In this document: in pieces, positions 9,189 to 50,185 of the stretch
Numbering within the stretch: the stretch's first letter is position 1
Layout of the letters: each line of letters begins with the position of its first letter
Assembly (NCBI GenBank): GCA_034110465.1
Contig: JAWUZD010000012.1
Span: forward strand, 80,017 to 144,016
DNA: 64,000 nucleotides
Direction: 5' to 3'
Source: Mesoflavibacter sp.
GTDB taxonomy: Bacteria; Bacteroidota; Bacteroidia; Flavobacteriales; Flavobacteriaceae
Made by a program: the position numbers and the translations under genes
Notes under the pieces: model-generated
What the model was told of the DNA's origin: nothing
Database searches by the model: none
The model's input: the letters and a program-made list of their open reading frames with translations, nothing else

Positions 9189-12100
9189 ATGAAATATTGT
9201 CTTTTTATAATTCTCTTCTTTATAGGCTGTGTTGCGTTTTCGCAAGATGAGTTACAAGAGGTGAGTTCAAAAAAAATGGCTGTTTCAGATACTATTACAA
9301 TAGAACCATTTAGTATTAGATCTTATCAATTTAAAGTAACTACAAAAAGTGGGGAAATTATAGATTCTACAAACTACAGTATAGATTTTAGTAGCGCTAC
9401 CTTAAAATTAAAAAATACTATTGATTCTGATAGTATTATTATAAATTACAGAAAATACCCAGAATTTATTACTAGAATATATCGAGGTTTAAATACTGAT
9501 TTGATTGTTGAAAATAATAGTAATCAAGAAAAATTATATAAATTTCAGGAACCCACAGAAGAAAAAACATTTAAACCTTTTGATGGATTAAACACGTCTG
9601 GAAGTATCTCTCGTGGTGTTACCGTAGGAAATAATCAGAACTCTGTTTTAAATAGTGAATTAGACTTACAAATTTCGGGGAAACTAAACGATAAAATTAC
9701 ATTACGGGCAAGTATTCAAGATGCGAATGTGCCATTACAACAAAGTGGTTATTCTCAGCGTTTAGATGAATTTGATCAAATTTTTATAGAACTTTATACT
9801 AATAAATGGTCTATAAGAGCTGGAGATATAGATCTCCAAAACAACACCTCTTATTTTGCCAATTTTAATAAACGTGTTCAAGGTTTATTACTAGCTGCAA
9901 ATATTGGAAATGAAGCTAACGAGACAAAAATTTTTGCTGCTGGTGCATTAGTTAGAGGTCAATTTCAAACCTACCAATTTACTGCACAAGAAGGAAATCA
10001 AGGTCCATATAAATTACAAGGTGGAAATGGAGAATTATTTGTATTAATTGTGTCTGGAAGCGAAACTATTTCTGTTAATGGAATTGCATTACAAAGAGGA
10101 GAAAACAAAGATTACATTATAGATTATAATGCTGGAGAACTAATTTTTAACTCCACTTATCCTGTGACTTCAGAAATGCGTGTTAACGTAGATTTTCAAT
10201 ATAGTGAGCGTAATTATTCTAGACTTGTTGTTTATGCTGGTGGGGAACATAAAGGTGAAAAACTTCAAGTTTCTGCTTCTGTATATTCTGAAAACGATTC
10301 TAAAAACAACCCATTACAACAAAATATAAGCACTGAACAAATAACTACTTTAAGTGAAGCTGGAGATAACCAAGCACTTATGACAACAAATTCTGAAATT
10401 GCCGAAGCTTATAACGAAAATCGTATTTTATATAAGAAAGATGTTGTTGGAACAGAAACTATTTATGTTTTTTCTACAAATCCTGCAGATGAATTATTTA
10501 GCGTTCGTTTTACTAATGTTGGGCAAAACAATGGAGATTACAACATAACAAGTTCTAATGCCATTTCTAATATTTTTGAATATGTTACGCCAATTTCTGG
10601 TATTTCTCAAGGAAGTTATTCACCAATAGTACAACTTATTGCACCAACAAAATTACAAATAGCTACTGTAAATGGTAGTTACGAATTTAATGAAAAAACA
10701 AAAGCATTGTTTGAAATTGCTGCAAGTAAAAACGATTTAAACTTATTTTCTGATATAGACGATGAGAACAATAACGGATTTGCAGGAAAGCTAAATTTAA
10801 CCAGAGACTTAATTAAAAAAGACCGTCTAAATCTATTATCTGTTTATACTGATGTGGATTTTATAAATAAAGATTTTAGAAATATTGAGGGTTTGTATGA
10901 AGTAGAATTTAATAGAAACTGGAATATAAATCAGCCTAGAAGTAATCAACTAAACACAAATTTAGGAGATCAGCTTCTAGCAACTTCCGGTATATTTTGG
11001 ACTAAAAAAGACAAACTAAATGTAAATTATAAATTTGAATATTTAGACTTTGAAGAAAATTTTAAAGGAAGCAAACACAATATAAGCTCCAATTACAAAC
11101 ACAAAAAACTAAACATTAATACAAACACAAGTCTTTTAAACACCGATGAAGTTAATGCAGAATCTCGCTTTTTTAGAACCAACAATAGAGCAATTTATAG
11201 ACTAGAAAAGCAATGGTTTGGAGCTGAATTTTCTTCCGAAGAAAACAAAAAAAGAATAAAAGACACAAAATTACTTACCAATTTAAGTCAGCGATTTATT
11301 GCATACAATGCCTTTACAGGAATTGGTGATAGTACAGGTGTTTTTACAGAAATTGGCTACAAGTATCGTATTAACGATAGTTTGGTTAATAACAAATTAG
11401 AAGAAGTAAATAAAAGTAACACTTATTATGTAGACTCTAAATTAATAGAAAACTCAAAAACTAATTTAAGTCTATTTGTAAACTACAGAACGTTAAACTA
11501 TTCCGCAGAAAACATCTCTTCAGAAAACTCATTAAACTCCAGATTACAATATAATCAGAAATTTCTAAAAGGATTTGTTCAAAGCAATACGGTTTTCGAA
11601 ACCAATTCTGGCGCTATTCCAAGACAAGATTATACTTATGTTCAAGTGGAATTAGGTCAAGGTTCTTATGTCTGGATAGATTATAACACTAATAGTATTC
11701 AGGAATTAGAAGAATTTGAAGTTGCGCCTTTTCAAGATCAAGGCGAATATCTTAGAGTACTTTTTCCAAATCAAAATTTCTTAAAAACACATCAAAATAG
11801 ATTGAGTCAAACTTTAATATTAAATCCAACAAATTGGGTTAATTCTGAAAATAAAATTAGTAAAATTTTATCCCATTTTTATAATCAAACCAGTTACTTA
11901 ATTGACCAAAAAACAGAACGAAAAGGAGATAACTTTAACCTAAATCCTTTTAGAAAAAACGAAGAAGATATTTTAGGCTTACAACTTAACTTTAGAAACA
12001 CATTGTTTTTTAATAGAGGAAAACAAAAATACACCACAAGTTATTCTTATTTAAACAACTCTACTTCTAATACCTTAACCTTTGGATTTATAGAAAACGA

Positions 12101-12629
12101 ATTAACAAGTCATATTCTAAATTTTAATCACAAAATTAAAAATAGTTGGCTAGTTACTATTGAAACAATTTTAAGTAATAGTATTAGTGAAAGTGAAAAC
12201 TTTAGTAGCAAAAATTTTAATATTGATAGCGAAACATTTTTCCCAAAACTATCTTATTTACTTACCGAGAACACACATTTTGATGTGTTTTATCAATATT
12301 TAAACAAAAATAATACCATTGGAAATTTAGAAGCCTTACAACAAAATAAATATGGCTTAAGTTTTGGACTAACTCCAAAAGATGCTATTAAAGGTACAGT
12401 AAGTGGAGAATTTAATGTAATTAACAACACCTTTTCTGGAAACACAAACTCGCCAGTTGGTTATCAATTACTAGAAGGTTTACAACCAGGTAGAAATTTA
12501 ACTTGGAGTGTTATTGCGCAAAAGAAAATCACCAAATACTTAGACTTAAATTTAACTTATTTTGGTCGAAAAACAGAAACCAGTAGAGCAGTTCACACAG
12601 GAAATATTCAGTTAAAAGCTTATTTTTAA
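9189..12629 (+). CDS. very large conserved hypothetical protein, probable outer-membrane beta-barrel
   Basis: 1146 aa with an N-terminal signal peptide (FFIGCVAFSQ). Composition is N/S/T/Y-rich with alternating residues throughout. The C-terminus ...TGNIQLKAYF ends in the aromatic residue typical of OMP beta-barrels. I recognise no catalytic motif. Confidence 0.45.
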   Translation: MKYCLFIILFFIGCVAFSQDELQEVSSKKMAVSDTITIEPFSIRSYQFKVTTKSGEIIDSTNYSIDFSSATLKLKNTIDSDSIIINYRKYPEFITRIYRGLNTDLIVENNSNQEKLYKFQEPTEEKTFKPFDGLNTSGSISRGVTVGNNQNSVLNSELDLQISGKLNDKITLRASIQDANVPLQQSGYSQRLDEFDQIFIELYTNKWSIRAGDIDLQNNTSYFANFNKRVQGLLLAANIGNEANETKIFAAGALVRGQFQTYQFTAQEGNQGPYKLQGGNGELFVLIVSGSETISVNGIALQRGENKDYIIDYNAGELIFNSTYPVTSEMRVNVDFQYSERNYSRLVVYAGGEHKGEKLQVSASVYSENDSKNNPLQQNISTEQITTLSEAGDNQALMTTNSEIAEAYNENRILYKKDVVGTETIYVFSTNPADELFSVRFTNVGQNNGDYNITSSNAISNIFEYVTPISGISQGSYSPIVQLIAPTKLQIATVNGSYEFNEKTKALFEIAASKNDLNLFSDIDDENNNGFAGKLNLTRDLIKKDRLNLLSVYTDVDFINKDFRNIEGLYEVEFNRNWNINQPRSNQLNTNLGDQLLATSGIFWTKKDKLNVNYKFEYLDFEENFKGSKHNISSNYKHKKLNINTNTSLLNTDEVNAESRFFRTNNRAIYRLEKQWFGAEFSSEENKKRIKDTKLLTNLSQRFIAYNAFTGIGDSTGVFTEIGYKYRINDSLVNNKLEEVNKSNTYYVDSKLIENSKTNLSLFVNYRTLNYSAENISSENSLNSRLQYNQKFLKGFVQSNTVFETNSGAIPRQDYTYVQVELGQGSYVWIDYNTNSIQELEEFEVAPFQDQGEYLRVLFPNQNFLKTHQNRLSQTLILNPTNWVNSENKISKILSHFYNQTSYLIDQKTERKGDNFNLNPFRKNEEDILGLQLNFRNTLFFNRGKQKYTTSYSYLNNSTSNTLTFGFIENELTSHILNFNHKIKNSWLVTIETILSNSISESENFSSKNFNIDSETFFPKLSYLLTENTHFDVFYQYLNKNNTIGNLEALQQNKYGLSFGLTPKDAIKGTVSGEFNVINNTFSGNTNSPVGYQLLEGLQPGRNLTWSVIAQKKITKYLDLNLTYFGRKTETSRAVHTGNIQLKAYF

Positions 12630-24216: not shown

Positions 24217-26229
24217 TTATTTTTTGATAAATTTCTTTTGATATAAACGCTGTTCTTTTTGAAACGACAAAATATATGTCCCTAATTGTAAAGCTCTTAT
24301 GTCGACCTTGTTTTCAACTGTTTTAAAATTAAAAATGCGTTGACCATTTATATTATGAATTAGCAGTTTTCCTTCTTGTAAATCTATGTTTTTAAAATAA
24401 ATGTAATCTTTGGAAGGGTTTGGATAAATCAATATATCTTCAGATAAAAAATCATTTATACTTAAGGTTTGTCCTTCAGTTACATTGATTGTTGCATTGA
24501 TTGTTGGGTTGTTAATAACATCTACTATACCAGAAGGCCAATTTATAGTTATCTGAGTTATTGATGTATCTGAACCTAAACCAAAATGAGCTGTTAAAGA
24601 ACTCATATGTCTAAATCCGTCTCCGGATCTAACATCTCTTATTTGAGTTCCAAGTGCACTTACAATTTCAATTCTTGTTCCAATACCATTTAAATTACTT
24701 CCTGTTGGATTACTAATATCTCCAATTGTATTTATTTTAATCCAATTGTTAGAATTCCCTTCATTTCTATACCAATTACCATTTGAATTAAAAACATCTA
24801 AAAAACCATCGTTATTTAAATCTCCAACAGCTCCAACAGAAAACCCTACTGTTGTTTCTGTAAAAGTTAAATCCTGATTATTAATTAGCATTTTATTTCC
24901 TGCTGAAAAAACATCTAAATAGCCATCATTATTAAAGTCATGAGTTATATGTTCTATTCCTGTATCTAAAAATGTATCTATTCCTGTACCAGCAGTAATA
25001 TCAGTAAAAGTCCCATCTTGATTATTATGCATCAATTTATGAGAACCATCTATAAAAGAACTTGCTCCAACAAAAACATCCATCCAACCATCATTATCAT
25101 AATCTCCCCATGCTGATGACCAAGTTTGAATTGGATCATATAAGCCAGAGGCTACACTTACATCTGTATAGTTTCCATTTCCGTCATTCTGAAATAATTC
25201 ATTAAATCTTGCAGATGCTGCTGCTCCACCACCATTACATTTAGATATAAACAAATCTATATCACCATCGTTATCATAATCTGTCCATAGAGAAGCATAA
25301 TTTCCACCACTTGGAGCATCTCCTAAACCGCCTTGATTATGTGTTAAATTTCCAGAACCATCATTTAAATAAAATTGGTTAGGACCAACATCATGACAAA
25401 CAAAAGCATCTAAATCTCCGTCGTTATTAATATCTACAAAATTTGTTCTTTGTGAAAAAACATATTCTGGGCCAGAAACTTCTAAATAACCTGTTCCGTC
25501 TCCATTTGCTTTCATGAAAGTGACTCCACTACCAGATCCATACATTAAATCATTATATCCATCATCATTAATATCTCCTGCCGCTATACTCCAGCTTGGT
25601 AAATAATCTGCATTATCTGTTGTATAATTTTCAATTGTAAAAACGCCTGAAGGTTGTTGATAGTTAATATTTATATTCGTTGCACTTACAGCTACAATAT
25701 CATCTAAATAATCACCATTCATATCTACAACACAATTTCTATAACTTCCTGTAGATGTTATTGGTGTTGTAATAAATGAAACCAATGGCGGTACATAGAC
25801 AGCTTCAGTTAATTGAAAATCAAACCCGTTAGATTCCCATCTATTATCAAAAGCTACATAATAAGTTACCCCACTTAAAGCGTTAAAGGTTGCTGTAGAT
25901 AAAAATCCTGCTCCAGAATCATCATCTCCAGAATGACAAACTAATGAGCCACAAGAACCTTTATACACATGAAATCTTGTGTCTTGACTTGTATTTATAG
26001 GTAAATCTGTAGTAATTGTAACTGTATAATTATTTGTTGGTGTATAAGTATACCATTCTGCAGCGGTTGCATTTCCTGTTCCTGAACAAACTAGCATTAC
26101 GCCATCTGTACCATCTATAGTTGCAACTGTGGTAATTCCTGACGAGACTGCAACTGCTGTGTTACATGTGTTTTGTGCTTCTACTATTAAACCAAATAGT
26201 AAAATAATTATTAATGTAATTTTTTTCAT
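24217..26229 (-). CDS. FG-GAP/VCBS 7-bladed beta-propeller protein (CRTAC1/ASPIC-UnbV-like) with T9SS C-terminal sorting domain
   Basis: 670 aa with a signal peptide. There are seven Ca-binding FG-GAP-type loops: DMNGDYLDD, DINDDGYND, DINNDGDLD, DYDNDGDID, DYDNDGWMD, DFNNDGYLD, DLNNDGFLD. An UnbV/ASPIC-like segment follows (GIGTRIEI...RDVRSGDGF.HMSS...HFGLG). The C-terminal ~75 aa (IYPNPSKDYIYF...GTYILSF) is a T9SS CTD. Confidence 0.75.
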   Translation of the reverse strand: MKKITLIIILLFGLIVEAQNTCNTAVAVSSGITTVATIDGTDGVMLVCSGTGNATAAEWYTYTPTNNYTVTITTDLPINTSQDTRFHVYKGSCGSLVCHSGDDDSGAGFLSTATFNALSGVTYYVAFDNRWESNGFDFQLTEAVYVPPLVSFITTPITSTGSYRNCVVDMNGDYLDDIVAVSATNININYQQPSGVFTIENYTTDNADYLPSWSIAAGDINDDGYNDLMYGSGSGVTFMKANGDGTGYLEVSGPEYVFSQRTNFVDINNDGDLDAFVCHDVGPNQFYLNDGSGNLTHNQGGLGDAPSGGNYASLWTDYDNDGDIDLFISKCNGGGAAASARFNELFQNDGNGNYTDVSVASGLYDPIQTWSSAWGDYDNDGWMDVFVGASSFIDGSHKLMHNNQDGTFTDITAGTGIDTFLDTGIEHITHDFNNDGYLDVFSAGNKMLINNQDLTFTETTVGFSVGAVGDLNNDGFLDVFNSNGNWYRNEGNSNNWIKINTIGDISNPTGSNLNGIGTRIEIVSALGTQIRDVRSGDGFRHMSSLTAHFGLGSDTSITQITINWPSGIVDVINNPTINATINVTEGQTLSINDFLSEDILIYPNPSKDYIYFKNIDLQEGKLLIHNINGQRIFNFKTVENKVDIRALQLGTYILSFQKEQRLYQKKFIKK

Positions 26230-31617: not shown

Positions 31618-34428
31618 TCACTCAACCTCAAACTTCTTCTGTAAACCATCAAAATCAAAATAATAAACACCTTTTGGCAAGTAACTTTCTCCATTTTTAG
31701 CTGGCTCAATATCTATGCTTGAATTTTCTTTAAGTAACGCTTTAACTCCTTTTTCTGTTAATACTAAATTATAGGATGAAGAGTTAAATCCTTTATTTGC
31801 TATTATAGTAAACAGATTCAGTACTTTTTTGTTTTCGGAAAGTACTTTTATTTCAATCTCTTGGGGTTTATTAGAGAAAAACTGAAGCTCTAAACTTGGC
31901 TCAGAAGCTTTTAACCATTTACTCCAAGAATTCCCCCAAGACTTTGAATGCCTAATAGATTCTATTTCAAAAACGGTAATATTTTCAGTTAATAACACTT
32001 CTGAATAATTTTGAAGTGCTTTAATATTGGTTTTATAAATGCTTCGGCCGTGAGTTCCTAATAGCAAATCTCCAGATGCTTTTTGCAAGACCAAATCGTG
32101 CACTGCCACTGCTGGTAAATTCTCAGAAAAAGCGTGCCATTTTTCGCCTTTATTAAAAGACACATAAGCACCATTATCTGTTCCTAAATACAAGATATTT
32201 TGTTTTTCTAAATCTTCTTTTATCACATTTATGGGTGACTTTGCAATTCCTGAATCTATTAATTTCCAAGTAATTCCATAATCTTCGGATTTATAAACAT
32301 AACTTTTAAAATTATCGTTTCTATAACCATTTAAAGTAACATAAACACGTTCTTTTTTATGTTGTGAAGCCACAATTCTTGAAACCCATAAATCTTGTGG
32401 AAAATTATTAGAAATAAGCGTCCAAGTTGCACCTGAGTTTTTTGTAATTTGAACCAAACCATCATCCGAACCTGAATAAATTAGTCCGAATTGAAAAGGC
32501 GATTCGCTTATAGTAGTTAAAGTTCCAAAGGCTACATTACCTTTTTTTCCACCTTTGGTTAAATCTTCTGAAATAGCTTCCCAGTCGTTTCCTTGATTTA
32601 GAGAACGCATCAATTTATTTCCTCCTAAATATAAAATATCTTGATTATGAGATGATAGTAAAATTGGTGTTTGCCAATTGAACCTATAAGGACTTTCGCC
32701 TAACGTATGTTTTGGCTGAATGTATTTTTGATCATCATTTTCACGATTAATTCTGTAATAATTACCAAACTGGTAACCTGTGTAAACTATATTAGAATTT
32801 CTAGTATCAACTTGAATTTGCATTCCATCTCCGCCCATAATACTCTTAAATGGGTTTTCTCCACTTTGTTGCCAACGCTTACTAATTTTTGATTTGCTTG
32901 ACCCAACCCAAACACCATTATCTTGTAAACCACCATAAACATTATAAGGCGTTTCGTTATCTACATTTACGGTATAAAACTGACCGACTGGATTAACGTT
33001 TAATTTCTCCCACGTTTCGCCATCATCATAACTCATATTTAATCCGCCATCGTTTCCATTAATTAAATGTCCTGCTTTTTTAGGATTTACCCAAAGCGCC
33101 TGATGATCTGCGTGTACATTTTCTCTACTTATAGATTCAAAATTTTTACCTGAATCTTTAGATTTTAAAATGGGAACACCTAAAACATAAATGTTATTTT
33201 CGTTTTGAAGATCTACTCTGATTTCGCCAAAATAATAACCGTAACTATACACCAAATCATCTAAATAATCCTGATGCGTTTTTTTCCAATCTTTTCCACC
33301 ATTAATAGTTTTATAAACTTCTGCTCCAACTACAGGTGTATCAAAAAGCATAGAATTAGCATCTTCTAAATAATGTGCCAAATCTATAGGTTTTACGTTT
33401 CCGCTTCTAACCATTTGCTTTACGTTTTCGGCACGATATTTCTCCTGAAAATCATTCGTTTTTAAAAATCCATTCAGTTTTTTATCTGTTAGAGCTAAAA
33501 ATTCCGTTTCGCTCATAGTTTTAAAATCTTCTTTAACTAAACCTCGCTTTTTAGTTTCCTTATCCTCTAAAGGTCTTCTTGCTTGGCTATCGTGATACGC
33601 ATAAACTGTATTTGCATTAAAAACCGCTAAACCAATACGTCCAACCGTTTTTCCTGTTGCAAATCCACTTTGTTCTGTAGAAATTTTAGTCCACGTTGCT
33701 CCTGCGTTTTCACTTTTATATATGGCTGAATTATTTCCGTTACCATTAAAATTCCACGCTTTTCTATCTTTAGTCCAAGAAGCCGCATACATAACATTAA
33801 AATTTTCTGGAGCAAACTGCACATCTATAATTCCGCTTAAATCGTCTACAAACAAGGTTTTATTCCAAGTTTTTCCACCATCTAAGGTTTTATAAATTCC
33901 TCTATCTTGATTTGGCGTATATAAGCTTCCTAAAACACCAACAATAATTTGGTCTTTATTGTTTGGATTTATTAAAATTCTTCCTATATGTTGAGAGTTT
34001 GGTAAACCTATATGTTCCCAATTTTCACCATTATCTCTAGATTTTAAGATTCCAATTCCCACATAAGAAGAACGTGAACTGTTATTTTCTCCTGTACCAA
34101 CATAAATTGTTTTACTTTTCCAATGCACAGCAATATCTCCTACATTTTGTGTTGGATAATTATCCAAAATAGGATCAAAACTACTTCCGTTATTTTTAGT
34201 ATACCAAACGCCTCCAGAAGCATAGGCCACATAAAATTCGGTTGGATTATTAGGGTTTACATCTAAATCCACAACGCGACCACTCATTACAGTTGGTCCA
34301 ATATTTTTAAATGCGATGTTTTTTACTAACGATTGCTTTTGTAGTTCTTGTAATTTTAAAGCGTCTTGCTGAGCATCAGCCGAAAGAACCAAAGTAAAAA
34401 AAGCAAGAATGGAAACGAATATTTTCAT
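31618..34428 (-). CDS. secreted BNR/Asp-box repeat (sortilin/VPS10-like tandem beta-propeller) protein
   Basis: The track ORF starts at 34467. I prefer Met14 at 34428 (MKIFVSILAFFTLVLSADAQ signal peptide). There are multiple Asp-box-like S.D.G.TW motifs (SRDNGENW, TLDGGKTW, SENAGATW, TINGGKDW, SYDDGETW, TKNSGATW, SEDYGITW). Confidence 0.7.
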   Translation of the reverse strand: MKIFVSILAFFTLVLSADAQQDALKLQELQKQSLVKNIAFKNIGPTVMSGRVVDLDVNPNNPTEFYVAYASGGVWYTKNNGSSFDPILDNYPTQNVGDIAVHWKSKTIYVGTGENNSSRSSYVGIGILKSRDNGENWEHIGLPNSQHIGRILINPNNKDQIIVGVLGSLYTPNQDRGIYKTLDGGKTWNKTLFVDDLSGIIDVQFAPENFNVMYAASWTKDRKAWNFNGNGNNSAIYKSENAGATWTKISTEQSGFATGKTVGRIGLAVFNANTVYAYHDSQARRPLEDKETKKRGLVKEDFKTMSETEFLALTDKKLNGFLKTNDFQEKYRAENVKQMVRSGNVKPIDLAHYLEDANSMLFDTPVVGAEVYKTINGGKDWKKTHQDYLDDLVYSYGYYFGEIRVDLQNENNIYVLGVPILKSKDSGKNFESISRENVHADHQALWVNPKKAGHLINGNDGGLNMSYDDGETWEKLNVNPVGQFYTVNVDNETPYNVYGGLQDNGVWVGSSKSKISKRWQQSGENPFKSIMGGDGMQIQVDTRNSNIVYTGYQFGNYYRINRENDDQKYIQPKHTLGESPYRFNWQTPILLSSHNQDILYLGGNKLMRSLNQGNDWEAISEDLTKGGKKGNVAFGTLTTISESPFQFGLIYSGSDDGLVQITKNSGATWTLISNNFPQDLWVSRIVASQHKKERVYVTLNGYRNDNFKSYVYKSEDYGITWKLIDSGIAKSPINVIKEDLEKQNILYLGTDNGAYVSFNKGEKWHAFSENLPAVAVHDLVLQKASGDLLLGTHGRSIYKTNIKALQNYSEVLLTENITVFEIESIRHSKSWGNSWSKWLKASEPSLELQFFSNKPQEIEIKVLSENKKVLNLFTIIANKGFNSSSYNLVLTEKGVKALLKENSSIDIEPAKNGESYLPKGVYYFDFDGLQKKFEVE

Positions 34429-34541
34429 AGGAAACGAATATTTTGAATTAATAACGTAAAAATTCACCTTAAAAATACAGAAGAATAGACGTTTAAACCC
34501 TATAAATTGGTTAAAAACTAACAGTTTGGCTTAAATAAACG

Positions 34542-41585: not shown

Positions 41586-41740
41586 ACTGCAAAATTAAGT
41601 AATCTTTAGCAATAGACAAATTTTGTTTAACCGTACTTTTTTATCGATAAAACAAACAATTCGAATGTTTTAACATTATTCAATTGTGAATATCTTAATA
41701 ATTTTATATTTTAGTTGCCAATTCAACAAACCCCATCCAA

Positions 41741-43261
41741 ATGCAGGTCAAAAAACTACTTACTTTATTATTAATATTACCTTTTTTTTCTATTTCGCAA
41801 GTACAAGAATGCACTAACAATCTAGCTGGCGGAATTTACCCATGTAATGATTATGATTTAATGTCTAATATTCCTATTTCTGTATTAGCAAATACAAATG
41901 GAAACCCAGAAGGTAGTGATGTTTGGGGTTGGACAGATCCACTTAACGGAAATGAATACGCAATAATTGCGCTTACAAACAGCACTGCTTTTGTAAATAT
42001 CACAAATCCTGTTAATCCAGTATTTATAGGTCGTTTAGATTCTAACGCAGGTAATAATTATTGGAGAGATGTAAAGGTTTATAATAATTTTGCTTTTATA
42101 GTAGCAGACAATGTTGGTTCTCACGGAATGCAAGTTTTTGATCTAAAAAGATTAAGAACTGAAACACCATTAAATCAAACTTTTTCTGCAGACTCTATTT
42201 ATACAGGTGTTGGTAGTTGTCATAACATTGTTATTAATGAGAGTGAAGCAATTGCTTATCTTGTCGGCTGTAGTTCTACAAATGGTGGAGGACCAATTTT
42301 TATAGATTTATCAGAATTTTCTCCAACTTCCTTAGCGCCTAATCCAACAGCAAATTTTATCAACGATTATACAGCTGGTGGATATTCTCATGATGCTCAA
42401 GTTGTAACCTACACAGGTCCAGATACAGATTATTATGATCCTGCAAATGGAATTACTGATAGACAAATTTATATTGGAAGTAACGGAAACACAGATAAAG
42501 TAGTTATTTTAGATGTAACCGATAAAAACAACATAATTCCTATTAATTCATTTACCTATACTCAAACTAGATATGCGCATCAAGGTTGGTTTACAGATGA
42601 TCAAAAATATTTTATTATGGGCGATGAAGTAGATGAACAATCTATAGGTTTTAATACTAAAACAATAATATTTGATTTTACAGATTTAGACATAGATTTT
42701 GATGATGCTGCAAATTCAGGCTTAACTCGATTTTATTTTGGTCCAGAAAGAGCTATAGATCATAATGGATATGTAAAAGGAAATGAGTTTTTTCTTGCTA
42801 ACTATAGAGCTGGAATGCGAGTTTTAGATATTTCGAATATAGATAACCCATCACTAAACCCAATGACAGAAATAGGTTATTTTGATACATATCCAGCAAG
42901 TAATTCAGCTAATTTTAATGGAGCTTGGAGTGTTTATCCTTATTTTAATAGTGGAAACATTATAATTAGTGATATTGAACGTGGTTTATTTGTAGTTAGA
43001 AAAAGTAATACACTAAGTACTCAAGAATTTAATACTGAAAACAGTATTAGCTTGAGTCCAAACCCTGCAAAATCATATTTTTCAATTAAATCTAATACTA
43101 CAATAAAGAGTGTTCGTATATATAATATATTAGGTCAAATAATCTTTAAAAAGGAGCAACTAAACACTAAAACCCATAAAATTAATACGTTAAATATCAC
43201 AAAAGGTGTATATTTAGTGAAAATTAACAATCAAATAACTAAAAAATTGATTGTGGAATAA
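41741..43261 (+). CDS. 'choice-of-anchor B'/LVIVD-type beta-propeller protein with T9SS C-terminal sorting domain
   Basis: 506 aa with a signal peptide (LLILPFFSISQ). Core motifs shared with its neighbour: GSD.WGWTDP, WRDVK.YNNFAFIVADNVGSHGMQVFDL, GSCHN, GYSHDAQV, YAHQGWF, AIDHNGYVKGNE, LANYRAGMR, WSVYPYFNSGNIIISDIE. The last ~75 aa (LSPNPAKSYFSI...KGVYLVKI) are a T9SS CTD (43037-43258). Confidence 0.65.
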   Translation: MQVKKLLTLLLILPFFSISQVQECTNNLAGGIYPCNDYDLMSNIPISVLANTNGNPEGSDVWGWTDPLNGNEYAIIALTNSTAFVNITNPVNPVFIGRLDSNAGNNYWRDVKVYNNFAFIVADNVGSHGMQVFDLKRLRTETPLNQTFSADSIYTGVGSCHNIVINESEAIAYLVGCSSTNGGGPIFIDLSEFSPTSLAPNPTANFINDYTAGGYSHDAQVVTYTGPDTDYYDPANGITDRQIYIGSNGNTDKVVILDVTDKNNIIPINSFTYTQTRYAHQGWFTDDQKYFIMGDEVDEQSIGFNTKTIIFDFTDLDIDFDDAANSGLTRFYFGPERAIDHNGYVKGNEFFLANYRAGMRVLDISNIDNPSLNPMTEIGYFDTYPASNSANFNGAWSVYPYFNSGNIIISDIERGLFVVRKSNTLSTQEFNTENSISLSPNPAKSYFSIKSNTTIKSVRIYNILGQIIFKKEQLNTKTHKINTLNITKGVYLVKINNQITKKLIVE

Positions 43262-43269
43262 ATTGAAAA

Positions 43270-44628
43270 ATGAAAAAACAACTATTCTTATTTGTCGCAT
43301 TTTTATGCTTCTCAATTGTTTTAACTTCATGTAAAAACGATGATGAGTTTATTACAACTAATACAAGTATTGATTCTGATGGAGATGGTATTCTAGACAG
43401 TTTAGATAATTGTCCTAACACTTCTAATCCTGACCAAATAGATAATGACGGTGATGGTATTGGGGATGATTGTGATAGTTCTCTAAACCCTTTATCTCCA
43501 TGTATATTAGGAATGGCTGGAGTTTACCCCTGTAACGGATTAGATTTAATGGGGTACATAGATGCGGATACATTAACTGGTGGAACTGGTATTGATGGTA
43601 GCGATATTTGGGGCTGGACAGATCCAATAACAGATCGAGAGTATGCTATAATAGGTATGGAAAATACAACTGCTTTTGTAGATGTAACAAACCCAACGGA
43701 TCCAATATTTCTGGGAAATTTAAACAGTTCTGCTGGTTCAAATTCATGGAGAGACGTTAAAACTTACAATAATTTTGCTTTTATTGTGGCTGATAATGTT
43801 GGATCTCATGGTATGCAGGTTTTTGATTTAACCAAACTTAGAAATATAATAAACCCTCCTCAAAATTTCACCCAAGATGCTTTATATACTGGAGTTGGAA
43901 GCTGTCACAATGTAGTTATTAATGAAAGTGAAGGGGTTGCTTACCTTGTTGGTTGTAATTCTACAAATGGTGGAGGGCCAATTTTTATAGATATATCATT
44001 ACCTACAAACCCAACACTAATAGGAGATTATACTGCTAGCGGCTATTCTCATGATGCACAAGTAATAACTTACAGTGGTCCAGATCAAGACTATCAAGGA
44101 AAAGAAATTTATATTGGAAGCAATGGCAATACAGATAAAGTTGTTATTTTAGATGTTACAGACAAGAATAATGTAATACTAATAAGTGATTTTACTTACC
44201 CTCAAACTGCTTATGCGCACCAAGGTTGGTTTACTGAAGATCAACGTTATTTTATTTTAGGTGATGAAGTAGATGAAATTAACTTTGGATTTAATACAAA
44301 AACATTAATTTTTGATTTCTCAGACTTAGACAACCCTTTACTTTCATCTAACTTCTCTGGAACTACAAAAGCAATAGACCACAATGGCTATGTTAAAGGC
44401 AATGAATATTATTTAGCAAATTATAGAGCAGGAATGCGTATTTTTAATATTGATAACATTGGTGCAGCATCTAATGCCTTATTAGAAACGCATTTTTTCG
44501 ATACATATCCGCCAAATGATAATGCTAATTTTAATGGAACGTGGAGTGTTTACCCATATTTTAATAGTGGAAACATTATAATTAGTGATATTGAAAAAGG
44601 ATTATTTATAGTTAGAAAAAATAATTAA
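43270..44628 (+). CDS. 'choice-of-anchor B'/LVIVD-type paralogue, lipoprotein with N-terminal thrombospondin type-3 Ca-binding repeats, no T9SS domain
   Basis: 452 aa with lipobox VLTSCKND. DSDGDGILDSLDNCPNTSNPDQIDNDGDGIGDDCD (43372-43476) is a TSP3 repeat pair. The remainder is collinear with 41741-43261 and has long identical peptide blocks, while the DNA differs at many synonymous sites. Confidence 0.65.
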   Translation: MKKQLFLFVAFLCFSIVLTSCKNDDEFITTNTSIDSDGDGILDSLDNCPNTSNPDQIDNDGDGIGDDCDSSLNPLSPCILGMAGVYPCNGLDLMGYIDADTLTGGTGIDGSDIWGWTDPITDREYAIIGMENTTAFVDVTNPTDPIFLGNLNSSAGSNSWRDVKTYNNFAFIVADNVGSHGMQVFDLTKLRNIINPPQNFTQDALYTGVGSCHNVVINESEGVAYLVGCNSTNGGGPIFIDISLPTNPTLIGDYTASGYSHDAQVITYSGPDQDYQGKEIYIGSNGNTDKVVILDVTDKNNVILISDFTYPQTAYAHQGWFTEDQRYFILGDEVDEINFGFNTKTLIFDFSDLDNPLLSSNFSGTTKAIDHNGYVKGNEYYLANYRAGMRIFNIDNIGAASNALLETHFFDTYPPNDNANFNGTWSVYPYFNSGNIIISDIEKGLFIVRKNN

Positions 44629-44630
44629 TT

Positions 44631-45959
44631 ATGAAAACACCCCATATATTTATAATTCTGATTTGTTTAATACAATTTGGTTGTAAAAATGATGACGATC
44701 AAATTCTGAATGCCTCAGTAATTGGAGATCTAGAATTTGCTCAAAATTATGGGGGACAAAAAAACGAAAGTGGTCAATCTGTTGTTGCTACTTCTGATGG
44801 TGGCTATGCTATTTTAGGCTATACACAATCTACCAATGGTGATATTACAGACAAAAATGAAGATAGTTTTGATTATTGGTTGCTGAAATTCAATGAAACC
44901 AATGAGTTGTTATGGACTAAAACCTTTGGGGGCACTTTAGACGATAGAGGTAATGATATTGTTGCCACACAAGATGGTGGATTTGCTATTACAGGTTATG
45001 GTTCTAGTAGTGATAATGATATTGATCTAAATAATGGAAATCAAGATTTTTGGATTTCTAAACTAGACTCCGATGGAAATATAACCTGGGAAAAATCTTT
45101 TGGATATAATGGTTCAGATAGAGCATATTCAATTATTCAAACTCAAGATCAAGGATTCTTAATTTCTGGAGTTTTAGATGTTACAGCTTCTGCTGGAGAA
45201 GGCAATAGTAAGAGTTATTTTACAGAACATGCTGGTGGAGATTATTGGGCTATAAAACTAGATAATAATGGAAACCAAGAATGGACTAAGTATTTTGGAG
45301 GAAATCTGTCAGATGATCCTTATGGAGTAACACAAACTTTAGACGGTAATTTTATTCTAATAGGTTCTTCAGATAGTGAAGATGTCGATATTACGAACAA
45401 CAAGGGTTCTTATGATTATTGGGTAGTATCCATTTCAAACTCCGGAATATTACTTTGGGAAAAGAATTTTGGAGGAACAGAAATAGATGAAGCAAGAGGA
45501 ATTACAAATACTACGGATGGAAATTTCTTAATTATAGGAAACACAAGAAGTAATGATATAGATATCTCTAATAATATTGGAGGTTCTGATATTTGGTTAA
45601 TTAAAATATCTCCATATGGAGAATTACTTTGGGAAAAAACAATAGGTGGAACAAGTTTCGATATTGGTAATAGTATTAGTAAAAGTATAAATGGGTATAT
45701 AATTTCTGGTGCATCTAGAAGTTTCGATGGAAACATAACTAGTAATAATGGTCAAAATGATGGATTCGTAGCAGAAATCAATGAAAACGGAGATCTTCTT
45801 TGGGCAAAATCTGCTGGTGGTTCAGACGAGGATTTAATATATGATAGTACTCAAATTAATAATGGAACAATTATATCTGTCGGAGAAACAACAAGTAACG
45901 ATTTCGATTTAAATAATAATAAAGGATTTACAGATTTATTAGTCTTAAAAATTAAATAA
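44631..45959 (+). CDS. lipoprotein built of seven ~55-aa repeats (SBBP-like beta-propeller)
   Basis: 442 aa with lipobox IQFGCKND. Seven tandem units follow the pattern W.K.FGG...D.....I..T.DGGF.I.G.T.S.D.DI..N.G..D.W..K....G...W, for example TKTFGGTLDDRGNDIVATQDGGFAITGY...DFWISKLDSDGNITW. Confidence 0.6.
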   Translation: MKTPHIFIILICLIQFGCKNDDDQILNASVIGDLEFAQNYGGQKNESGQSVVATSDGGYAILGYTQSTNGDITDKNEDSFDYWLLKFNETNELLWTKTFGGTLDDRGNDIVATQDGGFAITGYGSSSDNDIDLNNGNQDFWISKLDSDGNITWEKSFGYNGSDRAYSIIQTQDQGFLISGVLDVTASAGEGNSKSYFTEHAGGDYWAIKLDNNGNQEWTKYFGGNLSDDPYGVTQTLDGNFILIGSSDSEDVDITNNKGSYDYWVVSISNSGILLWEKNFGGTEIDEARGITNTTDGNFLIIGNTRSNDIDISNNIGGSDIWLIKISPYGELLWEKTIGGTSFDIGNSISKSINGYIISGASRSFDGNITSNNGQNDGFVAEINENGDLLWAKSAGGSDEDLIYDSTQINNGTIISVGETTSNDFDLNNNKGFTDLLVLKIK

Positions 45960-45964
45960 AAAAA

Positions 45965-46726
45965 ATGAAAAAAGTATTAGCCCTATTTTTAGTCATTACA
46001 TTGTTTTGGAGTTGTGGAGAAGATCTAGATGATAATGTTTCGACACAAGCAAATGTAAAATTTAATCTAACTCATTCTTTTGGAAACACAGAAGTAACTT
46101 TAGACAACTTTACAGATTTAGATTTAACTAATGCAAATGGTGAAGTATTAAATATTGAAAGAATAAGATACTTGATTTCAAGAATAGAATTAGTAAAATC
46201 TGATGGTGTTACATATAGATTAAAAGATTATAATTTCACAGATTTATCAGATAGTTCATCATATAATTTTAATGGAGATATATCAATTCCTTCAGGGATT
46301 TATACTTTAAGATTAGTTTGGGGGTTTAATGAAGAAGACAATTTAGATGCAGCGTATACAGATTTAAATACAGCTTCTTGGAACTGGCCTGCAATGCTTG
46401 GTGGCGGTTATCATTTTCTTCAGTTTGATGGAAAATACAATGTAAACACAACTACGCCATCATCATTTAATTATCATAACGGAACAGCTAAAAAAGCAGA
46501 TGGCACTTTTGAACAAAACTTTGCAACCATAGACTTACCAACAGCTATTTTTGTAGAAAACACAACATCAATAGAATTAAAATTCGATATTTCTGAATTA
46601 TTCAAAAACCCAAACACTTGGGATTTAAATGTATTGGATACACCTTTAATGCCAAATTATGATGCTCAAAAAATGATGCAAGCTAATGTTCAATCAGTAT
46701 TTAGTATTGGAGAAGTAACTAATTAA
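45965..46726 (+). CDS. mbnP: MbnP-like lipoprotein (partner of the downstream di-haem enzyme)
   Basis: 253 aa with lipobox LFWSCGED. It sits 4 nt upstream of a di-haem peroxidase-family gene, the canonical mbnP-mbnH order. RIRYLISRIELVKSDG and WNWPAMLGGGYHFLQFDG resemble MbnP family blocks as I remember them. This is not verified by search. Confidence 0.45.
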   Translation: MKKVLALFLVITLFWSCGEDLDDNVSTQANVKFNLTHSFGNTEVTLDNFTDLDLTNANGEVLNIERIRYLISRIELVKSDGVTYRLKDYNFTDLSDSSSYNFNGDISIPSGIYTLRLVWGFNEEDNLDAAYTDLNTASWNWPAMLGGGYHFLQFDGKYNVNTTTPSSFNYHNGTAKKADGTFEQNFATIDLPTAIFVENTTSIELKFDISELFKNPNTWDLNVLDTPLMPNYDAQKMMQANVQSVFSIGEVTN

Positions 46727-46730
46727 AATA

Positions 46731-47795
46731 ATGAAAATATTTAGACTCATTCTTATTTTATTTTTAGTTTCCTGTGGAGATAAAGAAACTGAAGTTGATA
46801 CCTATGAGCCTATTCCATATACGTTACAAATCCCAGAATTATTTCAACAAAAACTAATTCCACCATTAATTCCTATTAATAATAAACTAACAATTGAAGG
46901 TGTTACTCTAGGAGAAAAATTGTTTTTTGATAAGTTATTATCTACAGACAATTCTGTGTCTTGCGCAAGTTGCCATAATCCACAAGATGCTTTTTCAGAT
47001 AATAACATAGTAAGTACTGGTGTTAACGGTTTAACTGGCACAAGACATTCTATGCCACTATTTAATTTAGCATGGAACTTTGATGAAAAATTCTTTTGGG
47101 ATGGTCATGAGTTTAGCTTGGAACAACAAGCTTTAGAACCTGTAATTCAAGCAAACGAATTAGGGAATTCAGATTGGGAAATCGTTGAAGAACGTCTTCA
47201 AAACACCACAGAATATCCAGATTTATTCCAAAAAGCATTTAAAACATCTACTATAACAAAAACATTAATCGCACAAGCTATAGCTCAATTTGAACGTACT
47301 CTAATTTCAGGAAACTCTAAATTTGACAGATACAGTTTAGGCATAGAAACATTAACATCTGAGGAGTTAGATGGTTTAGATGTTTTTATGAATGAAGAAC
47401 GCGGAGATTGTTTCCATTGTCATGGTAATCCTAATAATCCACTTTGGACAGATAATAAATTTCACAACAATGGCTTAGATGCTACATTTACAGATTTAGG
47501 CTTAGGAGGATTTACTGGAGATCCAAATGACAACGGAAAATTTAAATCGCCTTCTTTACGTAATTTAGAATACACAGCTCCATATATGCATGATGGGAGA
47601 TTTGCAACCCTAGAAGATGTTATAAATCATTACAGCGAAGGTATTCAAGACTCGCCTACAATAGATGCTTTAATTAAAAAAGCTGATCAAGGTGGTGTTC
47701 AGCTACCAGTCCAAGATAAAGCTAATTTAAAAGCCTTTTTATTAACACTTTCTGATCCAGATTTTGTAAACAATTCTTTATTTCAAAATCAATAA
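46731..47795 (+). CDS. mbnH: di-haem cytochrome c peroxidase family protein (MauG/MbnH-like), lipoprotein
   Basis: 354 aa with lipobox LVSCGDK. CASCH is at 46962-46976 and CFHCH at 47409-47423. It has typical CCP/MauG blocks (GEKLFFDK.LS....SCASCH, FWDG, ALEP, F..FERTL, F......G.C..CH, F.N.G, FK.PSLRN...TAPYMHDG.F.TLE.VI.HY). Confidence 0.8.
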   Translation: MKIFRLILILFLVSCGDKETEVDTYEPIPYTLQIPELFQQKLIPPLIPINNKLTIEGVTLGEKLFFDKLLSTDNSVSCASCHNPQDAFSDNNIVSTGVNGLTGTRHSMPLFNLAWNFDEKFFWDGHEFSLEQQALEPVIQANELGNSDWEIVEERLQNTTEYPDLFQKAFKTSTITKTLIAQAIAQFERTLISGNSKFDRYSLGIETLTSEELDGLDVFMNEERGDCFHCHGNPNNPLWTDNKFHNNGLDATFTDLGLGGFTGDPNDNGKFKSPSLRNLEYTAPYMHDGRFATLEDVINHYSEGIQDSPTIDALIKKADQGGVQLPVQDKANLKAFLLTLSDPDFVNNSLFQNQ

Positions 47796-49780: not shown

Positions 49781-50185
49781 ATGAGAAACATATTATACAT
49801 TTTAGTTTTCGCGTTAAGCTTTTCAGCTTGTAAAAACGATTCAAAAGAAGTAGAAAAAATTGTAGAAACTATTGAAGATACAATTGCTAATGATGGTTTA
49901 ACCTTAATTGAAGGTGATTTTATTTATTACGCAGATGCAGCGGTTTTACAGACAAAAACTGGTTTTTTTGGTGTTATTCTTAATGATAAAGCAAAAGAAT
50001 TAGCCGAAAGAGCAAAACCATTTCAAAAGGAAACTACAGATATGGTTAAAGTTAGAGTTAGAGGTTTAATAGAACCTAAAGCTACTGATGCTGAAGGTTG
50101 GGATTTTACCGTAACCATTAAAGAAGTTGTTAGTGTTGAAGCATTAACTCTAAAAGAAAACGAAGTTATTAAAGTTGGAAAATAA
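49781..50185 (+). CDS. hypothetical lipoprotein inserted between sufB and sufC
   Basis: 134 aa with lipobox ALSFSACKND. Same strand, with gaps of 24 nt to sufB and 33 nt to sufC. I recognise no motif. Confidence 0.55.
   Translation: MRNILYILVFALSFSACKNDSKEVEKIVETIEDTIANDGLTLIEGDFIYYADAAVLQTKTGFFGVILNDKAKELAERAKPFQKETTDMVKVRVRGLIEPKATDAEGWDFTVTIKEVVSVEALTLKENEVIKVGK

Follow-up and report, generated by a model that had tools for sequence, protein, structure and literature searches.

In the MbnP/MbnH system, whose chemistry has only lately been worked out, a di-haem enzyme converts a tryptophan to kynurenine and so builds a copper site. The copper of MbnP is held by His, Met, water and the kynurenine, the last being formed by MbnH from one Trp in a WxW motif that is conserved (PMC11951088). 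A further described case is the mtoX-SCO1/senC-mauG operon, which encodes the SBP56 methanethiol oxidase (MTO) propeller, a protein that has conserved Trp and binds copper through four conserved His residues, together with the copper chaperone SCO1 and a MauG homologue (PMC5739008). For proteins named 'choice-of-anchor B' (CAB; TIGR04312) or 'LVIVD' no functional study was found in the literature. The present analysis concerns a five-gene module at positions 41741-47795 of a 64,000-nt stretch (the window) of contig JAWUZD010000012.1 from Mesoflavibacter sp., in which two CAB propellers and a repeat lipoprotein are followed by a divergent MbnP/MbnH-type pair. We tentatively read this pair as a copper accessory of the propellers. 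The five genes, in DNA with a G+C content of approximately 31%, are as follows.

Gene 1: 41741-43261, + strand, 506 amino acids; signal peptidase I (SPase-I) signal peptide, CAB propeller and type IX secretion system (T9SS) type-A sorting domain
Gene 2: 43270-44628, + strand, 452 amino acids; lipoprotein with thrombospondin type-3 repeats and a CAB propeller
Gene 3: 44631-45959, + strand, 442 amino acids; lipoprotein with seven repeats of about 57 residues (SBBP-like)
Gene 4: 45965-46726, + strand, 253 amino acids; lipoprotein, divergent MbnP family
Gene 5: 46731-47795, + strand, 354 amino acids; lipoprotein, MbnH-like (MauG-type) di-haem enzyme

The spacers between these genes measure only 8, 2, 5 and 4 nt. 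A consensus scan reveals no credible + strand intrinsic terminator within the unit, the sole + strand matches being weak 5-6-bp stems in gene 3, and there is a single upstream promoter-like region; from the shared strand and this packing we infer that genes 1-5 are co-transcribed as one unit. Every product starts with an export signal, which is of the SPase-I type in gene 1 (...FFSISQ) and a lipobox in genes 2 (LTSC/KNDDE), 3 (FGC/KNDDD), 4 (WSC/GEDLDD) and 5 (VSC/GDKETE). The original prediction, made from the letters alone, had called these reading frames, gaps and export signals, the lack of an internal hairpin terminator, seven repeats in gene 3 and two CxxCH motifs in gene 5, and in each of these particulars it is borne out; its assignments of genes 1 and 2 to CAB, of gene 4 to MbnP and of gene 5 to the MauG/MbnH type likewise agree with the profile scores given below.

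The gene 4 product matches the Pfam MbnP family (PF20243) at 92.8 bits, compared with a cut-off of 27, over residues 29-221 (model positions 2-181 of 189), and its orthologues carry the NCBI name "MbnP family protein"; no NCBIfam family was found for it at E <= 0.01. The closest relative found, from a Flavobacteriaceae (Aurantibacter) metagenome-assembled genome (MAG), is 91% identical. An AlphaFold2 model (predicted local distance difference test, pLDDT, 82) matches only the MbnP structure 7l6g, through all six of its chains (E 8e-7 to 6e-6; TM-scores 0.57/0.50), the next fold match lying at E 0.09. Identity in the fold alignment is approximately 14%, and neither the gene 4 sequence nor a 30-member family profile reaches 7l6g in PDB searches. 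The protein possesses a single WxW, W139-N-W141; Manesis et al. 2021 reportedly identified the first Trp of this motif as the residue modified in MbnP. Alignment with canonical proteobacterial MbnPs reveals that W139 and H171 are invariant and that M229 is present in seven of eight, which gives a candidate triad whose correspondence to the 7l6g ligands is read from the alignment and not from superposed coordinates.

Candidate copper-site triad of gene 4: W139 in WNW at 46379-46387, H171 at 46475-46477 and M229 at 46649-46651, + strand, from alignment

Because of the fold match and the conserved Trp/His/Met triad, gene 4 is accepted as a divergent MbnP, and its product is predicted to carry kynurenine at W139 and to bind copper.

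Gene 5 scores 185.6 bits against PF03150 (CCP_MauG), and the best of the curated di-haem families is MbnH (TIGR04039; 238.6 bits), with MauG at 192.8 bits. Since the MbnH score falls under the equivalog cut-off of 362.85, the protein is called MbnH-like and not a certified equivalog. Its haem sites are CASCH at residues 78-82 (46962-46976) and CFHCH at residues 227-231 (47409-47423). The best PDB sequence match is 6e1c (165 bits), followed by the canonical peroxidase 1iqc (126 bits) and MauG (approximately 80 bits), and identity to a proteobacterial "MbnH family di-heme enzyme" is 36% over the full length. Judged by these profile and sequence matches, genes 4 and 5 are an MbnP/MbnH-type pair. 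A point of nomenclature arises in plasmid records of Paracoccus (L145:6696-7865), Trichormus (L146:6790-7941) and Ideonella (L147:6740-8011), where the gene after MbnP is annotated as "methanobactin export MATE transporter MbnM." The Paracoccus product is 32% identical to gene 5 over its full length and has both CxxCH motifs, as befits a di-haem MbnH homologue, and the label looks like a propagated misannotation.

The upstream half of the module is dominated by the two CAB propellers. Both CAB domains span model positions 1-364 of TIGR04312 (cut-off 100 bits), that of gene 1 occupying residues 23-421 (453.8 bits) and that of gene 2 residues 77-450 (508 bits); they are 68% identical to one another. 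The C-terminus of gene 1 is a T9SS type-A domain at residues 439-505 (TIGR04183, 42.7 bits, cut-off 23; PF18962, 47.4 bits, cut-off 27), which predicts secretion of the protein, or its attachment to the surface, by that route, while gene 2 carries thrombospondin type-3 Ca-binding repeats at residues 33-71 (PF02412). The family is large: an exhaustive profile search returned approximately 10,000 clusters at 50% identity with E <= 1e-3, and 2,423 with E <= 1e-30, and its members are often long and multidomain.

Conservation within the CAB domain was counted, in gene 2 numbering, over 150 diverse representatives that are 39-62% identical to gene 2. H213, H261, H317 and H371 are conserved in at least 98% of these and H180 in 90%, and at least 95% conservation is seen for W114-G-W116, D262, D332/E333/D335/E336, D370, D411, W320 and W425. 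The AlphaFold2 model of the gene 2 CAB domain (pLDDT 89; predicted TM-score 0.90) has seven blades of four strands each. In its strand map the four His residues, with their Asp neighbours, fall one to a blade in blades 3 to 6, each time at the start of the first and presumably innermost strand, and in blades 1 and 2 the corresponding places are taken by D112 and R161/D162; in the model, this ring of His and acidic residues would face the propeller axis, an arrangement that usually marks a metal or active centre. Given four to five near-invariant His residues and an Asp/Glu ring, a metal centre on the propeller face is therefore probable, and the CAB propellers are probably either metalloenzymes or metal-binding receptors. 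In gene 1 the His-ring motifs lie at 42215-42226, 42383-42400, 42572-42589 and 42755-42772, and WGW is encoded at 41924-41932 in gene 1 and at 43609-43617 in gene 2. The blocks GSCHN, GYSHDAQV, YAHQGWF and AIDHNGY, which occur in both paralogues, had been proposed as invariant His/Cys blocks that might supply metal ligands. For the His residues this invariance extends to the whole family; for the Cys it does not, that of GSCHN being conserved in 8% and that of VGC in 2% of the representatives, and both were rejected as metal ligands. They probably form a lineage-specific disulfide.

A sequence search of CAB against the PDB reached no solved structure, the CAB profile matching thrombospondin repeats only. 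By fold, the top PDB match of the gene 2 CAB model is the phosphotriesterase of Sphingobium (5hrm; E 1.7e-11; TM-scores 0.65/0.51), and the others are generic propellers, among them the SBP56 protein 2ece at rank 15 (0.52/0.44). Homology of CAB to SBP56/MTO was considered and rejected, there being no Pfam match even at E <= 10 and only this generic placing of 2ece. The 5hrm match brings in the possibility that CAB proteins are surface metallo-hydrolases with a binuclear Mn, Zn or Fe centre of the phosphotriesterase kind, gene 5 acting mainly as a protective peroxidase in what would not be a copper module at all. The Sphingobium propeller is indeed said to bear a metal centre, the CAB ring combines His with Asp/Glu, and gene 5, which lies under the MbnH cut-off, resembles the canonical peroxidases too. 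The fold similarity to 5hrm is moderate, however, and CAB profiles find no hydrolase by sequence; moreover, gene 5 is steadily paired with an MbnP-fold protein that keeps its Trp/His/Met triad, which is the signature of a maturation pair and not of a detoxifying peroxidase. We consider a hydrolase of this type very unlikely.

The CAB motif WGW formally matches the WxW whose first Trp becomes kynurenine in MbnP. It has to be asked, then, whether the propellers are themselves direct substrates of MbnH, with a conserved Trp, for example in WGW, converted to kynurenine or to a quinone-type cofactor that serves as the active site, and with MbnP as a second client or copper donor. WGW (W114/W116) is conserved family-wide, further invariant Trp residues (W320 and W425) lie next to the His ring, MbnH acts on just such a WxW Trp in MbnP, and MauG homologues mature Trp-derived cofactors in partner enzymes, a MauG gene accompanying the SBP56 propeller MTO (PMC5739008). 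Against this, the many CABs without MbnH beside them conserve WGW to the same degree; the motif may for that reason be purely structural, and we give direct modification of the propellers only a slim chance.

Between the propellers and the MbnP/MbnH pair lies gene 3, six of whose seven repeats of about 57 residues end in W-x-K-x-(F/I/A)-G(G), and which presumably folds as a seven-bladed propeller of the SBBP-like type. It matched no Pfam family in a profile search. Against the model of the SBBP/LipL53-type leptospiral lipoproteins (NF047494) it scores 44.6 bits, below the cut-off of 400, and its likeness to that type goes no further than the seven-fold repetition and the lipobox. A cluster of conserved His or Cys residues is lacking. 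In other loci the SBBP gene, where present with both, always stands between CAB and MbnP; it also accompanies CAB alone, and within the CAB-ascertained loci described below it was never seen without CAB.

In Bacteroidota, acidic residues directly after the lipobox Cys send lipoproteins to the cell surface, the known signals being C-X-K-(D/E)2 and SDDFE (PMC5080379). The residues that follow the Cys in genes 2 (CKNDDE), 3 (CKNDDD) and 4 (CGEDLDD) fit this rule, the first closely resembling a surface-export signal, and orthologues of all three genes are enriched in Asp/Glu at positions +4/+5. For gene 5 the corresponding sequence (CGDKETE) allows no clear call; across orthologues of genes 3 to 5, acidic residues like those of the export signal come after the lipobox Cys. 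The signals of genes 2-4 and the T9SS tail on gene 1 jointly predict a location at the cell surface for the products of at least genes 1-4.

The conservation of the arrangement was followed in two sets of loci. The first was ascertained by a scan with gene 4, one genome being taken per species, and comprises 52 loci, all in Flavobacteriaceae. The second was ascertained by CAB and comprises the best 80 metagenome loci (closest matches, 53-75% identity), 47 of which are informative. In 47 of the 52 MbnP-ascertained loci the order thiL(-), one to four CAB genes, SBBP, MbnP, MbnH and sufA-sufB is kept; four of the remainder are cut by contig ends and one (L051) is a stand-alone MbnP/MbnH pair in another context. 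Two outcomes that the original prediction had named as refuting it, the lack of an MbnP match for gene 4 and the lack of co-occurrence in related genomes, thus did not arise. The complete set CAB, SBBP, MbnP and MbnH is found in 33 of the 47 informative CAB-ascertained loci, and about 35 have both MbnP and a di-haem gene, including one with a divergent MbnH (L097). CAB copy number ranges from one to five across loci. Adjacency of MbnP and MbnH is kept in more than 80 loci, and where they are missing from the slot they are missing together, except in L058, which has MbnP without MbnH, and possibly in L113, which has MbnP and no recognised MbnH (the region downstream was not inspected). With the same gene order in about 80 other loci, the arrangement is therefore far from chance.

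Locus L069 departs from the others in that CAB-CAB-SBBP is followed by a di-haem gene and by an MbnP of another, more canonical type (141 bits against Pfam), which has taken the place of the flavobacterial type. In the same locus (L069:12530-16863) approximately 2.3 kb of decayed open reading frame (ORF) fragments, including a remnant of a LuxR-type helix-turn-helix, lie between the MbnP and the di-haem gene. In a Urechidicola MAG the whole module and an adjacent inverted segment are duplicated (L039 and L042) at 99.5-99.8% identity. L039 was rejected as a second copy of the module, being 99.8% identical to L042 and situated at a contig end; the duplicate probably arose in assembly or else very recently in the genome.

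Outside the Flavobacteriaceae, CAB genes are confined, in a collection of plasmids and chromids, to two records of Pseudoalteromonas xiamenensis (two strains). In one record (H2) an 898-residue CAB (34% identical) is encoded head-to-head with an "MbnP family copper-binding protein" and an "MbnH family di-heme enzyme," and in the other (H1) the distance from CAB to MbnP is approximately 560 bp. Parashewanella spongiae has the same divergent layout with two CAB-type genes. The association of CAB with MbnP/H is thus real and recurrent: two phyla at least show it, each with an MbnP subtype and a gene arrangement of its own, and L069 has a third type of MbnP. Two further CAB neighbourhoods offer weaker hints of a metal context: in a Pseudomonadota MAG (L142:1-7680) CAB lies beside an Fe-type ABC transporter, an imelysin (Peptidase_M75) and a DHOR di-haem oxidoreductase, and in a Woeseia MAG (L143:42-7861) a copper P-type ATPase and DUF411 are located 3.5 kb from CAB. 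The canonical MbnPs of Paracoccus, Trichormus and Ideonella are found beside TonB-dependent receptors or copper chaperones (PCuAC, SCO), without CAB.

We propose that the five genes are one co-transcribed module, located in the envelope or at the cell surface and consisting of two functional halves. In the first, the MbnH-like gene 5 product would oxidize W139 of the gene 4 product to kynurenine, which with H171 and M229 would create a Cu(I) site. In the second, the CAB propellers, one sorted by T9SS and the other lipid-anchored, would be the effectors, holding a metal in the His/Asp ring, with SBBP as their structural or binding partner. MbnP/H would be a facultative accessory that most likely acquires copper and passes it to the propellers, or the reverse; MbnH could possibly also mature the CAB proteins oxidatively by modifying a propeller Trp. 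For the model as a whole, with MbnP/H as the copper accessory of CAB metallo-propellers, we estimate a probability of roughly 0.45. Its parts differ in strength: a functional link of some kind between the MbnP/H half and the CAB half is reasonably probable, whereas the specific handover of copper between them is doubtful. The gene structure, the family and fold assignments, the conserved residues, the conserved order and the recurrence in a second phylum are shown, whereas we infer that the products are exposed at the surface, that kynurenine forms, that the metal is copper and that there is any MbnP-CAB transfer. A more far-reaching form, in which the CABs are surface copper enzymes or receptors whose metal centre, possibly with a cofactor derived from the WGW Trp, is installed by MbnP/MbnH, appears improbable.

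Several observations weigh against the copper-accessory model. In four of the CAB-ascertained loci CAB and SBBP lead directly to sufA, in L114 they occur in an unrelated context without MbnP/H, and in five more CAB is alone, while L051 holds MbnP/H alone. Ten other CAB neighbourhoods, in Kangiella, an Anaerolineae MAG, Woeseia and further genomes, also have no MbnP/H; the two with hints of a metal context are among them. The link between CAB and MbnP/H is facultative and, for both families, a minority arrangement. The original prediction of a five-gene unit is sound for the operon-like packing, but the unit is not an obligate one, seeing that CAB is present in one to five copies, with SBBP only or by itself, and that MbnP/H also stands alone. 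The full His ring, WGW and the acidic cluster are retained in CABs with or without an MbnP/H neighbour; the best fold match of CAB is a Mn hydrolase and not a copper enzyme. The MbnH score of gene 5, below its equivalog cut-off, belongs here too. Finally, the best 80 CAB-ascertained loci all occupy the same chromosomal slot except L114 and L120, and with nearly all flavobacterial loci in one orthologous slot conserved order alone is therefore weak evidence for coupling; judging from the gene maps, the shared order (abhydrolase-thiL, module, sufA-sufB) could be largely inherited and not selected.

Much of this would also suit two unrelated systems that happen to lie side by side by inherited synteny, MbnP/H being a lone copper-homeostasis pair and CAB/SBBP being adhesins or surface binders that hold no metal. 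Each half is found without the other, most non-flavobacterial CABs have no MbnP/H, and the thiL/suf flanks are common to the flavobacterial loci; in addition, the literature usually calls CAB and LVIVD proteins surface or attachment proteins, and gene 2 has thrombospondin-type repeats. By contrast, the trio recurs in Alteromonadales in a different arrangement and with canonical MbnP/H, a different type of MbnP occupies the same position in L069, the gaps of 2-8 nt allow just one upstream promoter-like region, and an invariant His ring is atypical of a pure adhesin. We regard mere juxtaposition as rather unlikely.

The region before gene 1 has the following putative signals.

Putative promoter/regulatory region before gene 1: 41664-41712, + strand; inverted repeat, TTTAACA and imperfect -7 box

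The inverted repeat AATGTT-TT-AACATT (41664-41677) encloses TTTAACA (41669-41675). At 41705-41712, 36 nt before the ATG of gene 1, the sequence TATATTTT forms an imperfect -7 box of the Bacteroidetes type. Among 36 orthologous upstream regions the -7 box TAnnTTTG is present in 26, approximately 35 nt before the ATG (shuffle expectation 3.6), and TTTAACR in 17 (shuffle expectation 2.9), its distance to the -7 box that follows being in most cases precisely 38 nt. This conserved promoter-like region is located ahead of the first CAB gene only, and the TTTAACR element, to judge by its spacing and recurrence, may be a regulator site.

The flanks of the module are housekeeping genes: thiL lies upstream on the opposite strand, and downstream are sufA, sufB, a gene for a small lipoprotein, sufC, sufD and sufS. 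The adjacency to suf had been taken to indicate a metal-homeostasis neighbourhood, a view that is not upheld: it is a lineage-specific synteny, sufA is preceded by a separate Bacteroidetes -7 box, in several loci MbnH is not followed by sufA, and the Alteromonadales version of the module is located away from suf. The window ORFs that were scanned against Pfam, which cover most of those of at least 400 residues, include neither a TonB-dependent receptor nor a copper gene, in agreement with the earlier statement that a TonB receptor is absent. The gene between sufB and sufC (49781-50185) specifies a 134-residue predicted lipoprotein (...FSAC-KNDSKE) with no Pfam family, and would thus place an exported protein within an otherwise cytoplasmic Fe-S assembly operon. 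Elsewhere in the window, an ORF of 1146 residues (9189-12629) has no Pfam family at E <= 1e-5, and two exported repeat proteins are encoded on the - strand at 24217-26229 and 31618-34467, namely an FG-GAP/ASPIC-UnbV protein with a T9SS tail and a 949-residue Sortilin/BNR-repeat protein, neither of which accompanies the module at its other loci.

The individual families are already known, having been named by annotation pipelines. New are the divergent MbnP/H branch, its host group and its setting, which lacks a TonB receptor, methanobactin genes and copper chaperones. The claim that the combination was undescribed agrees with our finding no account of a CAB/SBBP-MbnP/H module in the searchable literature, which did not extend to a published analysis of MbnP neighbourhoods, where a prior mention is possible. 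The linkage, recurring in a second phylum, offers each family a concrete partner, provides the first functional lead for CAB and enlarges the range of roles that copper sites built on kynurenine might have. If the link is functional, it would show that abundant marine Flavobacteriaceae have a new way to handle copper, or to mature proteins by oxidation, at their surface; and if CAB proteins were copper proteins installed by MbnP/H, maturation of the kynurenine/MauG type would extend from one small copper protein to widespread extracellular enzymes of marine bacteria.

Compared with MbnP/MbnH of the methanobactin operon of Methylosinus trichosporium OB3b (7l6g, 6e1c), the pair described here likewise consists of a WxW protein of the MbnP fold encoded directly before a MauG-like di-haem enzyme, with the Trp/His/Met triad conserved and both proteins exported. 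It differs in that the sequences are very divergent, both products are lipoproteins and the host belongs to the Bacteroidota; furthermore, there is no methanobactin operon, TonB-dependent transporter or copper chaperone, and the pair instead forms a unit with CAB and SBBP. MopE/CorA of methanotrophs are also surface Cu(I) proteins with kynurenine in the copper site, encoded beside a di-haem cytochrome c peroxidase homologue, but they differ from MbnP in fold and sequence family, and propeller partners have not been described for them. Within the CAB (TIGR04312)/LVIVD family, genes 1 and 2 are full-length members with two kinds of anchor, T9SS and lipid; the family has no assigned function, and here it gains a conserved set of partners (SBBP, MbnP and MbnH) and a candidate metal site. 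The phosphotriesterase of Sphingobium sp. TCM1 (5hrm) is the best structural match, being likewise a seven-bladed propeller, yet it has no detectable sequence relationship to CAB, its TM-score is moderate and no association with MbnP/H is known for it. With the mtoX-SCO1-mauG operon the module shares the joint encoding of a propeller bearing conserved His and Trp, a copper-binding accessory and a MauG-type di-haem enzyme. The likeness is one of operon logic only: the propeller is CAB and not SBP56, MbnP replaces SCO1, and the predicted location is the surface or outer membrane, as opposed to the soluble periplasm. By analogy, the MTO operon would be the closest functional precedent for the module.

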